A stretch of DNA of 64,000 nt, taken from assembly GCF_003018255.1 (NCBI RefSeq), contig NZ_CP027440.1; one strand, written 5' to 3'. The stretch is from Escherichia coli. GTDB lineage: Bacteria; Pseudomonadota; Gammaproteobacteria; Enterobacterales; Enterobacteriaceae. Shown here in pieces: positions 4,149 to 55,698 of the stretch. The notes beneath the pieces are model-generated. The model was not told the DNA's origin, did not search any database, and saw nothing but the letters and a program-made list of their open reading frames with translations. The position numbers and the translations under genes were made by a program. Numbering within the stretch: the first letter of the stretch is position 1; the number at the start of each line of letters is the position of its first letter.

Positions 4149-7100
4149 ATGATTGAATGGATTATTCGTCGCTCGGTGGCGAACCGTTTTCTGGTGCTGA
4201 TGGGCGCGTTGTTTCTGAGTATCTGGGGCACCTGGACCATCATTAACACGCCAGTGGATGCACTGCCGGATCTCTCTGATGTGCAGGTGATTATTAAAAC
4301 CAGCTATCCCGGTCAGGCACCGCAAATCGTTGAAAATCAGGTGACTTATCCGCTAACCACCACCATGTTGTCGGTGCCTGGCGCGAAGACTGTGCGCGGT
4401 TTCTCGCAGTTTGGCGACTCTTATGTGTATGTCATTTTCGAAGATGGCACCGATCCGTACTGGGCGCGCTCGCGGGTGCTGGAGTACCTCAACCAGGTAC
4501 AGGGTAAGCTGCCTGCGGGAGTCAGCGCCGAGCTGGGGCCAGATGCCACGGGTGTTGGCTGGATCTATGAATATGCACTGGTGGATCGCAGCGGTAAGCA
4601 CGATCTTGCCGATTTACGCTCATTGCAGGACTGGTTTCTCAAATATGAGCTGAAAACCATTCCTGACGTTGCGGAAGTGGCGTCGGTAGGCGGTGTGGTG
4701 AAAGAGTATCAGGTGGTTATCGATCCTCAGCGCCTGGCGCAATATGGCATCAGTCTCGCCGAAGTAAAAAGCGCGCTGGATGCTTCAAACCAGGAAGCGG
4801 GTGGTTCGTCGATCGAACTGGCGGAAGCGGAATATATGGTGCGAGCCAGCGGCTATCTGCAAACGCTCGACGACTTTAATCACATCGTTTTAAAAGCCAG
4901 TGAAAATGGCGTGCCCGTTTATCTGCGTGATGTTGCGAAGGTCCAGATTGGCCCGGAGATGCGCCGGGGCATTGCCGAACTGAACGGCGAAGGCGAAGTG
5001 GCGGGCGGGGTGGTGATCCTGCGCTCCGGCAAAAACGCCCGAGAAGTAATCGCCGCCGTGAAGGACAAACTGGAAACGCTGAAAAGTAGTCTGCCGGAAG
5101 GCGTGGAGATAGTTACAACATACGATCGCAGCCAGCTCATTGATCGCGCCATCGACAACCTCAGCGGCAAGTTGCTGGAAGAGTTTATTGTGGTGGCGGT
5201 AGTCTGTGCGCTGTTTCTCTGGCATGTGCGCTCGGCGCTGGTGGCGATTATTTCGTTGCCGCTGGGGTTGTGTATTGCTTTTATTGTCATGCACTTTCAG
5301 GGACTGAACGCCAATATTATGTCGTTGGGTGGCATTGCGATTGCCGTCGGGGCGATGGTCGATGCCGCTATCGTCATGATCGAGAATGCGCATAAACGGC
5401 TGGAAGAGTGGCAGCACCAGCATCCTGACGCCACGTTGGATAATAAAACGCGCTGGCAGGTGATTACCGATGCATCTGTTGAAGTGGGGCCGGCGCTGTT
5501 TATCAGTCTGCTGATTATCACGCTGTCGTTTATCCCGATCTTCACCCTGGAAGGGCAGGAAGGGCGTCTGTTTGGCCCGCTGGCGTTCACCAAAACCTAT
5601 GCGATGGCGGGTGCGGCGCTACTGGCGATCGTAGTGATCCCGATCCTGATGGGCTACTGGATCCGTGGCAAAATTCCGCCGGAAAGCAGTAACCCGCTCA
5701 ATCGCTTTTTGATTCGTGTTTATCATCCGCTGTTGCTGAAAGTACTGCACTGGCCGAAAACCACGCTGTTGGTGGCAGCGCTTTCGGTGCTGACGGTTCT
5801 CTGGCCGCTCAATAAAGTTGGCGGGGAATTTTTACCGCAGATCAATGAAGGCGACTTGTTGTATATGCCATCGACGCTGCCGGGGATTTCCGCAGCAGAG
5901 GCGGCGAGCATGCTGCAAAAAACCGACAAGCTGATTATGAGCGTACCGGAAGTGGCGCGGGTATTTGGCAAAACCGGGAAAGCGGAAACCGCCACCGATT
6001 CAGCTCCACTGGAGATGGTAGAAACGACTATCCAGCTTAAGCCGCAGGATCAGTGGCGGCCTGGCATGACGATGGACAAAATCATTGAGGAACTGGATAA
6101 CACCGTGCGTCTGCCGGGGCTGGCGAATCTGTGGGTGCCGCCAATTCGTAACCGTATCGATATGCTCTCGACTGGCATTAAAAGCCCGATTGGCATTAAA
6201 GTTTCCGGCACCGTGCTGGCGGATATCGACGCGATGGCGGAGCAAATTGAAGAAGTGGCGCGAACGGTGCCAGGCGTGGCTTCTGCGCTTGCTGAGCGTC
6301 TGGAAGGTGGGCGTTATATCAACGTTGAGATTAACCGTGAAAAAGCCGCGCGTTACGGTATGACGGTGGCGGATGTGCAGTTGTTTGTGACTTCTGCGGT
6401 GGGCGGGGCGATGGTTGGCGAAACGGTGGAAGGGATTGCTCGTTATCCAATTAATCTGCGTTATCCGCAAAGCTGGCGCGATAGCCCGCAGGCACTGCGC
6501 CAGTTGCCGATCCTCACGCCGATGAAGCAGCAAATCACCCTGGCAGACGTGGCTGACGTTAAAGTCTCTACCGGACCGTCGATGCTGAAAACCGAGAATG
6601 CGCGCCCGACGAGCTGGATTTATATCGATGCCCGCGATCGTGACATGGTGTCGGTGGTTCACGATCTGCAAAAAGCGATAGCTGAAAAAGTGCAGTTAAA
6701 ACCGGGCACCAGCGTGGCATTCTCCGGGCAGTTCGAGCTACTGGAGCGCGCCAACCATAAGCTGAAACTCATGGTGCCGATGACGCTGATGATCATCTTC
6801 GTGCTGTTATATCTGGCGTTCCGTCGGGTGGGCGAAGCGTTGCTGATTATCAGCAGCGTACCGTTTGCGCTGGTGGGCGGCATCTGGTTGCTGTGGTGGA
6901 TGGGCTTTCATCTTTCCGTGGCGACGGGCACCGGTTTTATTGCCCTTGCCGGGGTTGCCGCCGAATTTGGCGTGGTGATGCTGATGTATTTACGTCACGC
7001 CATAGAGGCCGAGCCGTCGTTGAATAATCCGCAAACATTCAGCGAGCAGAAGCTGGATGAGGCGTTGTATCACGGCGCGGTCCTGCGCGTGCGCCCGAAA

Positions 7101-52417: not shown

Positions 52418-52587
52418 ATTTCCTTTGTCTTTCGCGCTACTAACTCCGGCGCGAAATACTTCGGAAATTCACCTAATTCTTCGGGTGCTGCGGCACCCGA
52501 TTTTCTTCCCCGCACCATGATGCAAGCTGCATCCAGGTAGCCGCAGAGGCCGCTTGCATGATGATGTTTAAAGCCCAGGAGATAAAC

Positions 52588-54153
52588 ATGCTCGACACAA
52601 ATATGAAAACTCAACTCAAGGCTTACCTTGAGAAATTGACCAAGCCTGTTGAGTTAATTGCCACGCTGGATGACAGCGCTAAATCGGCAGAAATCAAGGA
52701 ACTGTTGGCTGAAATCGCAGAACTGTCAGACAAAGTCACCTTTAAAGAAGATAACAGCTTGCCGGTGCGTAAGCCGTCTTTCCTGATCACCAACCCAGGT
52801 TCTAACCAGGGGCCACGTTTTGCAGGCTCCCCGCTGGGCCACGAGTTCACCTCGCTGGTACTGGCGTTGCTGTGGACCGGTGGTCATCCGTCGAAAGAAG
52901 CGCAGTCTCTGCTGGAGCAGATTCGCCATATTGACGGTGATTTTGAATTCGAAACCTATTACTCGCTCTCTTGCCACAACTGCCCGGATGTGGTGCAGGC
53001 GCTGAACCTGATGAGCGTACTGAACCCGCGTATTAAGCATACGGCAATTGACGGCGGCACCTTCCAGAACGAAATCACCGATCGCAACGTGATGGGCGTT
53101 CCGGCAGTGTTCGTAAACGGGAAAGAGTTTGGTCAGGGTCGCATGACGTTGACTGAAATCGTCGCCAAAATTGATACTGGTGCGGAAAAACGTGCGGCAG
53201 AAGAGCTGAACAAGCGTGATGCTTATGACGTATTAATCGTTGGTTCCGGCCCGGCGGGTGCAGCGGCAGCAATTTACTCCGCACGTAAAGGCATCCGTAC
53301 CGGTCTGATGGGCGAACGTTTTGGTGGTCAGATCCTCGATACCGTTGATATCGAAAACTATATTTCTGTACCGAAGACCGAAGGCCAGAAACTGGCAGGT
53401 GCGCTGAAAGTTCACGTTGATGAATACGACGTTGATGTGATCGACAGCCAGAGCGCCAGCAAACTGATCCCGGCAGCGGTTGAAGGTGGCCTGCATCAGA
53501 TTGAAACAGCTTCTGGCGCGGTACTGAAAGCACGCAGCATTATCGTGGCGACCGGTGCAAAATGGCGCAACATGAACGTTCCGGGCGAAGATCAGTATCG
53601 CACCAAAGGCGTGACCTACTGCCCGCACTGCGACGGCCCGCTGTTTAAAGGTAAACGCGTAGCGGTTATCGGCGGCGGTAACTCCGGCGTGGAAGCGGCA
53701 ATTGACCTGGCGGGTATCGTTGAGCACGTAACGCTGCTGGAATTTGCGCCAGAAATGAAAGCCGACCAGGTTCTGCAGGACAAACTGCGCAGCCTGAAAA
53801 ACGTCGACATTATTCTGAATGCGCAAACCACGGAAGTGAAAGGCGACGGTAGCAAAGTCGTAGGTCTGGAATATCGAGATCGTGTCAGCGGCGATATTCA
53901 CAACATCGAACTGGCCGGTATTTTCGTGCAGATTGGTCTGCTGCCGAACACCAACTGGCTGGAAGGCGCAGTCGAACGTAACCGCATGGGCGAGATTATC
54001 ATTGATGCGAAATGCGAAACCAACGTGAAAGGCGTGTTCGCAGCGGGTGACTGTACAACGGTTCCGTACAAGCAGATCATCATCGCCACTGGCGAAGGTG
54101 CCAAAGCCTCTCTGAGTGCTTTTGACTACCTGATTCGCACCAAAACTGCATAA
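52588..54153 (+). CDS. ahpF: Alkyl hydroperoxide reductase flavoprotein AhpF
   Basis: ORF 52558-54153; known start [21 protein letters not shown] and CPHC redox motifs. Confidence 0.95.
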
Positions 54154-54273: not shown

Positions 54274-54702
54274 TTAACGCACAACCAGCACCGGCAAATT
54301 GGCGTGGCGGATCACGCTCGAGGCGTTAGAACCCAACAGATGAGTTGAAATTGATGGGTTACGCGAACCAATCACTACTACATCTGCATCAAGTTCTTTC
54401 GCTAACTCGTTAACTTCATCCCGCACACTACCAAAACGGACATGTTGCTTAATGCGGGAAGGATCGATGGTGAAGTGGCTGACCATCGTTTGCAGACGTT
54501 CTTCTGCTTCATGTTGCAGATGCTCTTCAAAACGACGTACATCAGCGGCAAAACGGTGCAGGCTCAGGCTGGCTGACCCCGGTAGTACGTGAAGTAGATG
54601 AATAACTCCGTCATCCTGGGCGAGGAATTCAGCGTGGCGAATCGCTTTGTCGCTCAATTCCATTTCGAAAACATCCACTGGCATGATGATTGTTTTGTAC
54701 AT
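54274..54702 (-). CDS. uspG: Universal stress protein UspG
   Basis: ORF 54274-54735; known start [20 protein letters not shown]. Confidence 0.9.
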
Positions 54703-55058
54703 AAGCATTCTCTCCTTGTTTTTGCATGTATGCATAACAGCACATTATTGGTTATGAATCTATAATTTGCGAGGCTGATTTGATCTGAATTTGCTATTGA
54801 GCTGGAAAATAAATAAAAACCAGGCGCTACCAGCGTTGTTCAAGGTATAGCACTGCAGCAACAATAATTGCTGCTATGAATATATAAAATGCAGTGATAC
54901 CGAGAGCTTCGCTCATATGAGGTTCCGCAGATGAATAGCCAGTTCAGATTAGAATGCTGCGCTTAAGAGCAAAATGATAAATCTGGTTGATATTTGAGCG
55001 GAAAGAGGATGCGAGTGCATCCTCTGGGCAAAGCGAGTTATCGCTTGTGCAGATGGGA

Positions 55059-55469
55059 TTAAAGCAGGTAGTCGCCAGCAGCTTCTGGCTGGTATTCGAG
55101 TTCCAGCACTTCAAGGTGGGTTGCAACGCCGCCCGGAAGTTCCCAGTGAATGGAATCGCCAACGCGCAGCCCCAGCAGTGCGGCACCTACCGGAGCCATA
55201 ACGGAAAGCTGAGTATTGCTGTCGGTCATTTTTGCCGGATACACCAGCGTGCGCACACGCACTTCGCCATCGCTAAGATTGCGGAATTTAACCCGGCTGT
55301 TCATTGTCACCACGTCGTGTGGCATCTCTTCTGGCGAACACATTTGGGCGCGATCCAACTCTGCGTTTAACGCGTCGGCGATTGGCAAACCAGCATAGGC
55401 GGGTTGCTCCAGCAGAATATCGATGCGTTCGGCATCCAGGTCGTTAATGATGATAGTTGGTCTGGACAT
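55059..55469 (-). CDS. rnk: Regulator of nucleoside diphosphate kinase Rnk (GreA/GreB-like)
   Basis: 136-aa [32 protein letters not shown]... Confidence 0.9.
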
Positions 55470-55698
55470 TTTTACTCCATGTCGTCGGTACTGCGAGTGT
55501 CGCAGATAAACATACCCAAAAGAAAACCCTCACCGTCAGGCGGCGAGGGTTTAACTCACATGATGATACTGACTGTTGCTCACTCTTTGAAGTGATTTGC
55601 GTCACATTCAGGGAATTCCTCAATGTAGCGCATTATGTATAAATCTTAATCGTCATGGTTTATGGAAGACGAATTAGCGTGTTTTGTAAATCAGAGGA

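Follow-up and report, generated by a model that had tools for sequence, protein, structure and literature searches.

In the window, that is, the whole 64-kb stretch of Escherichia coli DNA that was analysed, the genes ahpF, uspG, rnk, rna and citT follow one another in this order, with a gap of 356 bp (54703-55058) between uspG and rnk. The gap is delimited by the start codon of uspG (54700-54702, minus strand) and by the stop codon of rnk (55059-55061, minus strand), in agreement with the spacing of about 355 bp given in the first-pass annotation of this DNA. The same annotation placed ybdR between these two genes in K-12 and had proposed that ybdR is missing here. Both points were borne out: ybdR occupies this position in the K-12 locus (1239 bp, plus strand), and a tblastn search of the whole window with K-12 YbdR gave no match at E ≤ 1e-3. 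The features of the interval and of its flanks are collected in Table 1. The longest open frame of uspG extends over 54274-54735, with 11 extra codons upstream; RefSeq and all the orthologues start at MYKTIIMP (54702), and this start is preceded by the ribosome-binding site AAGGAGAG.

Table 1. Coordinates of the genes and signals in and around the uspG-rnk gap (window positions).
Feature	Position	Strand	Description
ahpF	52558-54153	+	
uspG	54274-54702	-	left flank; same strand as yldA; start 124 bp downstream of the yldA stop
haplotype-specific 277-bp segment	54721-54997		covers yldA, the sequence upstream of it and the spacer to uspG, including the promoter region of uspG
candidate extended -10 element for uspG (TGcTGTTAT)	54734-54742	-	conserved TG-n-T..AAT block in the alignment of ybdR-less loci; putative, not called by the consensus scan
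yldA coding sequence	54827-54916	-	29 codons and TAG stop; product MSEALGITAFYIFIAAIIVAAVLYLEQRW, small membrane protein YldA
weak Shine-Dalgarno-like GGAA	54923-54926	-	6 nt upstream of the yldA ATG, about 90 nt past the rnk hairpin; putative function
rnk terminator hairpin	55004-55025	-	AGAGGATGC-N4-GCATCCUCU, 9-bp stem, then short U tract UUUCCGCUC; right-hand edge of the variable segment
rnk	55059-55469	-	right flank; same strand as yldA, upstream of yldA

The short open frame in the gap had been described at first pass as either a small membrane protein or a chance frame. Its position and translation were reproduced as originally given, and of the two readings only the small membrane protein held. 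In genomes with the same arrangement, RefSeq names the frame "yldA: small membrane protein YldA", and the K-12 homologue has been detected as a protein by chromosomal epitope tagging and immunoblotting (VanOrsdel et al. 2018; PMC6001520, Table 1). Neither of the two outcomes named at first pass as refuting, a K-12 locus that also lacks ybdR or the lack of a translation signal for the frame, applies. The product of the window frame scored 59 bits against the NCBIfam equivalog NF041476 (cut-off 45), with residues 1-29 placed on model positions 1-29. Against Pfam PF23689 ("YldA-like") it reached 22.9 bits (E = 9e-5), under the gathering score of 27, compared with 73.6 bits for the K-12 allele; this model appears to be centred on K-12-type sequences, and the shortfall is a matter of one model's threshold, not a biological feature. 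The window protein has all six residues that are invariant in the family, the length of 29 amino acids, the single hydrophobic helix and the synteny of YldA. The frame is thus almost certainly yldA, a real and conserved gene coding for a 29-residue single-pass inner-membrane protein, located at its usual place downstream of the rnk terminator.

The K-12 protein (b4734 region; WP_000796528.1; NF041476; PF23689) is similar to that of the window in its length of 29 residues, in the position and strand of its gene directly downstream of the rnk terminator, in its hydrophobic helix with the C-terminal core AAIIV.AVLYLE and in its RefSeq gene name. The surroundings of the two genes are different: in K-12, yldA and ybdR are convergent and their stop codons are separated by 3 bp, whereas in the window yldA is followed by uspG on the same strand. 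A survey published in 2025 reports the ybdR-yldA pair as a case of overlapping convergent transcription in K-12 RNA-seq data (PMC12288877).

The conservation of the frame was analysed in 80 rnk loci from Enterobacteriaceae, obtained by an rnk scan with one genome per species. In 34 of these 80 loci, the terminator of rnk is closely followed, on the same strand, by a 29-codon frame. When the window and K-12 are added, the 36 yldA-bearing loci belong to many genera and have distinct coding sequences, all of them exactly 29 codons long; the alternative forward frames are open in just 3 and 9 of the 36. The entropies of codon positions 1, 2 and 3 were 0.66, 0.48 and 1.18, the third being about twice the others, and the mean pN/pS was 0.37. 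Between the window and E. albertii, YldA is identical, with a pN of 0 and a pS of 0.295. Judged by these substitution patterns, yldA is a protein-coding gene under purifying selection. The same selection supports the production of the window allele as a protein, the immunoblot detection covering the K-12 allele only. As 84 frames of at least 20 amino acids occur within 5 kb, a frame of 29 codons would be unremarkable by itself, and it stands above chance because it is conserved.

The residues M1, E3, A21, V22, L25 and E26 are invariant in YldA, and the consensus is MxExLxITLxFLIxxAIIVxAVLYLERHW. The entropy is 0.58 at residues 15-26 versus 1.55 at residues 2-14. Residues 4-25 have a mean Kyte-Doolittle hydropathy of 2.5 and are flanked by an acidic N-terminus (M-x-E) and by the tail E-(R/Q/N)-(H/R)-W. 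The conservation along the helix has no one-sided periodicity such as would indicate a single binding face (p = 0.53).

Lack of ybdR is a common form of natural variation in E. coli. A megablast of the uspG-rnk interval against 5426 complete E. coli genomes revealed the same arrangement, at 97-100% identity, in 1816 of them; the gap of the window was matched over its whole length in 1817 of 5422 genomes and the K-12 segment with ybdR in 3600. ATCC 25922 and an O127:H6 strain are examples of the ybdR-less type, and K-12 derivatives and O157:H7 carry ybdR. The ybdR-less type is also present in E. albertii, with an identical YldA, and in an Escherichia clade genome. A literature search on ybdR gave no account of its variable presence.

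Blastn similarity between the window and K-12 ends at 54720, 18 nt upstream of the uspG start, and is found again from 54998 onwards, immediately past the terminator hairpin of rnk. The K-12 counterpart of the 277-bp segment lying in between measures 1611 bp, cannot be aligned to it and contains ybdR and a divergent yldA. Possession of yldA is therefore not peculiar to the ybdR-less arrangement: in K-12 the gene lies between ybdR and rnk and encodes MAEAFYILIGFLIMAAIIVMAVLYLENHS. Fifteen of the 29 residues are identical in the two proteins, 4 among the first 14 and 11 among residues 15-26. At the DNA level, neither megablast nor distant blastn matched the two alleles, the kinship being visible at the protein level only, and distant blastn of 54721-54997 gave no match in ybdR-carrying genomes. 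The pS of the two alleles is 0.80, as high as between genera, and the pN is 0.345; their synonymous sites are nearly saturated. The flanking genes show 92.8% (uspG, 86% in one 100-bp bin) and 99.8% (rnk) DNA identity to K-12. Given the very divergent alleles, the unalignable segment and the contrast between uspG and rnk, the difference within E. coli is an exchange between two old haplotypes and not a recent or clean deletion of ybdR. The divergence of the haplotypes seems to extend into uspG and to stop sharply at the rnk terminator.

The evidence on the ancestral form in E. coli is divided: E. albertii and the Escherichia clade genome are ybdR-less, and YbdR of K-12 and Salmonella share 92% of their amino acids, about as distant as neighbouring core proteins. 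All four combinations of the two genes were found across genera. K-12, Citrobacter sedlakii and many Enterobacter have both ybdR and yldA; the window, E. albertii, several Citrobacter, Lelliottia and Phytobacter have yldA without ybdR; Salmonella subspecies arizonae and diarizonae, Leclercia and Silvania have ybdR without yldA; and Kluyvera, most Kosakonia and several Citrobacter have neither. In Enterobacter, Lelliottia and Citrobacter, relatives with and without ybdR align cleanly on either side of the gene, and the indel begins just past the stop codon of yldA and ends some 50-70 nt upstream of uspG.

Two matches that looked anomalous were set aside. A 67-residue "double" YldA, considered as a pair of tandem paralogues, was present in one metagenome scaffold (2703-2906) and in none of the 5426 complete E. 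coli genomes. It consists of the first 19 codons of window-type yldA, a K-12-type upstream region and a K-12-type yldA, then ybdR, and is probably a chimera created when two co-occurring strains were assembled, or else a rare recombinant. The apparent overlap of yldA with the rnk terminator in another match proved to be merely a longer start-codon call on the K-12-type haplotype.

In the aligned orthologous loci, a GG-containing purine patch occupies the position of the GGAA motif of the window. A scan of the gap with the sigma-70 consensus detected no promoter for yldA or uspG. As none was called upstream of yldA, the gene may be transcribed from a promoter that is weak or non-canonical, or by polymerase reading through the hairpin of rnk. 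This hairpin has a folding energy of -15.5 kcal/mol (z = -4.75); it was spotted by eye and confirmed by folding, the consensus terminator scan having failed to call it, and is present in 49 loci, with or without yldA, its stem being invariant across genera. An intrinsic terminator after yldA was also considered and rejected, the T-rich run found there having no significant hairpin (z = 0.08). A search of Rfam gave no credible match inside the gap. On the side of uspG, the sequence upstream of the gene differs entirely between the E. coli haplotypes beyond 18 nt before the start codon (window 54703-54826 versus K-12 locus 1873-2092), so that the regulation of uspG may differ between strains; K-12 also differs at the position of the candidate -10 block.

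As regards function, the most informative likeness is with YoaI (34 aa; NF041475; PhoB-regulated), another single-pass small membrane protein. All 34 YldA sequences matched the NCBIfam YoaI model NF041475 at E ≤ 0.01 (best 1.9e-8) and matched almost no other model. When the YldA alignment was compared with YoaI by hhalign, an ungapped match of YldA 1-28 on YoaI 6-33 was obtained with 91% probability (E = 1e-6). YoaI scored 18.9 bits on the YldA HMM made here, a value reached by none of 5000 composition-preserving and none of 5000 core-only shuffles, the best core-only shuffle coming near it with 18.7 bits; the scores of eight further small membrane proteins from E. coli were about 0. A YldA profile search of 1.84 billion representative proteins returned only 44 clusters at E ≤ 0.001. 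One of these clusters, P0033, lies at the yoaI position, between yeaL-like and yeaK-like genes, and scored 68.9 bits with the YoaI model and 38.4 bits with the YldA model. In the reverse direction, K-12 YoaI matched the YldA model weakly (E = 0.035). The window protein reached 30 bits on NF041475, below the equivalog cut-off of 45, and its gene lies between rnk and uspG whereas K-12 yoaI lies between yeaK and yeaL; the window frame is therefore not a YoaI orthologue. YldA and YoaI are probable paralogues, the homology of two short hydrophobic helices being hard to prove. On the annotation side, P0033 (4001-4138 of its locus) is a YoaI orthologue called with an 11-residue N-terminal extension and labelled PF23689:YldA, and K-12 YoaI is left without a Pfam match, so that in current annotation the overlap between YoaI and the YldA-like family of Pfam is inconsistent.

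A 2025 preprint (PMC11429745) describes YoaI as a binding partner and activator of the sensor kinase EnvZ. It gives S26, V27 and E31 as the invariant residues of YoaI, places E31 in a predicted cytoplasmic tail and reports that the substitutions E31A or E31Q abolish both binding and activation of EnvZ. In an ungapped superposition of YldA 1-29 on YoaI 6-34, these three residues align with the invariant A21, V22 and E26 of YldA: the valine and the glutamate, the latter followed by R, are kept, as is a glutamate near the N-terminus. The two proteins differ in the five extra N-terminal residues of YoaI, in their loci (yeaK-yoaI-yeaL versus rnk-yldA) and in the replacement of the invariant serine by alanine. 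The preprint (PMC11429745) mentions neither YldA nor any YoaI paralogue, and no mention of a link between YldA and YoaI was found in the searchable literature. The kinship suggests that YldA could modulate a membrane protein.

Taken as a whole, the data are best explained, with a probability of about 0.85, by a yldA gene on a common ybdR-less haplotype, the product of which would act by binding a larger inner-membrane protein. YldA would be inserted in the inner membrane with a periplasmic N-terminus and a short cytoplasmic C-terminal tail, and would bind a larger protein of this membrane, as characterised small membrane proteins do. The contact may involve the strongly conserved, cytoplasm-proximal half of the peptide (A16-E26, motif AVLYLE), including Glu26. 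By analogy with MgrB-PhoQ, MzrA-EnvZ, SafA-PhoQ and AcrZ-AcrB, which are small membrane proteins of E. coli that modulate kinases or associate with complexes (in part from PMC11429745), we lean towards such an interaction; these are also short single-helix inner-membrane proteins, which bear no sequence relationship to YldA and provide an analogy only. The most specific guess at the partner would be a sensor histidine kinase, EnvZ or another, because YldA is a probable YoaI paralogue and the EnvZ-binding glutamate of YoaI aligns with the invariant Glu26. This identification of the partner is tentative and rather doubtful. Still more speculatively, YldA and YoaI could belong to a single family of very small membrane peptides that modulate kinases, in which the invariant juxtamembrane Glu26 of YldA would bind EnvZ or another sensor kinase. 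The two yldA alleles differ at 10 of the first 14 residues and keep the motif on the cytoplasmic side, and the haplotypes might then tune signalling differently. If this were true, signalling would be tuned in one way in the two-thirds of E. coli where yldA converges on ybdR and in another in the one-third where it stands in tandem upstream of the stress gene uspG.

YldA may instead be a real small membrane protein whose partner is not a sensor kinase, a serious possibility in our view. It would then belong to a transporter, a respiratory complex or another membrane enzyme as an accessory subunit, or modulate one of these, and the likeness to YoaI would reflect ancestry or convergence without a shared class of target. 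The small membrane proteins of E. coli are known to have widely varying partners, AcrZ, KdpF, CydX and MgtS being accessory subunits or modulators. The sub-threshold score on the YoaI model and the alanine found in place of YoaI S26 are in agreement with this proposal. It fits less well with the two positions conserved in both families, which include the glutamate functionally critical in YoaI, and with the syntenic YoaI orthologue that bridges the two families.

A type I toxin-like peptide, whose translation would be repressed by an antisense RNA, is very improbable. Ibs, Ldr, TisB and ShoB are short hydrophobic single-helix toxins, and YldA shares these three traits; yet yldA occurs in a single copy whose syntenic position is the same in many genera, growing K-12 cells make the protein in detectable amounts, and YldA has no polar or basic C-terminus of the kind that several toxin families typically carry. 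Moreover, no Rfam antitoxin or small RNA family matched the gap, and the consensus scan detected no promoter-like site on its opposite strand. Just as improbable is the reading in which the frame is translated only as a regulatory upstream frame or uspG leader, or as an appendage to rnk transcripts, with a peptide devoid of function of its own. The orientation of rnk, yldA and uspG, all on the minus strand in the window haplotype, is compatible with such a role, and the poor U tract after the rnk hairpin together with the lack of a significant hairpin after yldA makes read-through plausible. Nevertheless, selection acts on the amino acids themselves, as indicated by the comparison with E. albertii and by the six invariant residues, and yldA is equally conserved where a convergent ybdR separates it from uspG (K-12, Enterobacter, C. 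sedlakii). Finally, the many nearby frames of similar length and the weak Shine-Dalgarno sequence would suit a chance open frame in an intergenic region, a reading effectively refuted by the conservation data, namely the constant length of 29 codons in 36 of 36 loci with the other forward frames seldom open, and by the score above the curated equivalog cut-off.

The main reading, yldA on a common ybdR-less haplotype, makes the original observation real but ordinary: a known small membrane protein gene, annotated and with experimental support in K-12, lies on a common version of the locus. As public annotation contains yldA, its protein and the window allele, and the lack of ybdR is common, the finding was already known. 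The present analysis adds how deeply the alleles are split, that ybdR and yldA were gained or lost independently across genera, and the link to YoaI, a modest and hypothesis-generating contribution. The probable kinship with the EnvZ activator YoaI offers a directly testable hypothesis on the function of YldA. Furthermore, E. coli carries two very different YldA alleles, one linked to ybdR and the other to its absence, each with its own sequence upstream of uspG, and results obtained in K-12 may therefore not transfer to ybdR-less strains such as ATCC 25922 or the O127:H6 isolate.

Some minor observations concern rnk itself. The stem of its terminator hairpin (AGAGGATGC / GCATCCTCT) is identical in sequence in many genera whereas the loop and the flanks vary, without covariation, and this conservation exceeds what a plain terminator would need. 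Upstream of the gene, the Enterobacteria rnk leader (RF01771, 124.9 bits) was detected at 55515-55623 on the minus strand, and the consensus scan called inside it a promoter-like site (55591-55563) and a terminator-like hairpin (55552-55524). In Citrobacter amalonaticus (5444-5628), two copies of the rnk terminator hairpin lie 163 bp apart, on either side of an insert with a hairpin of its own (aaagaaggaaaaa...tttttccttcttt), an arrangement that looks like a small insertion with target duplication.
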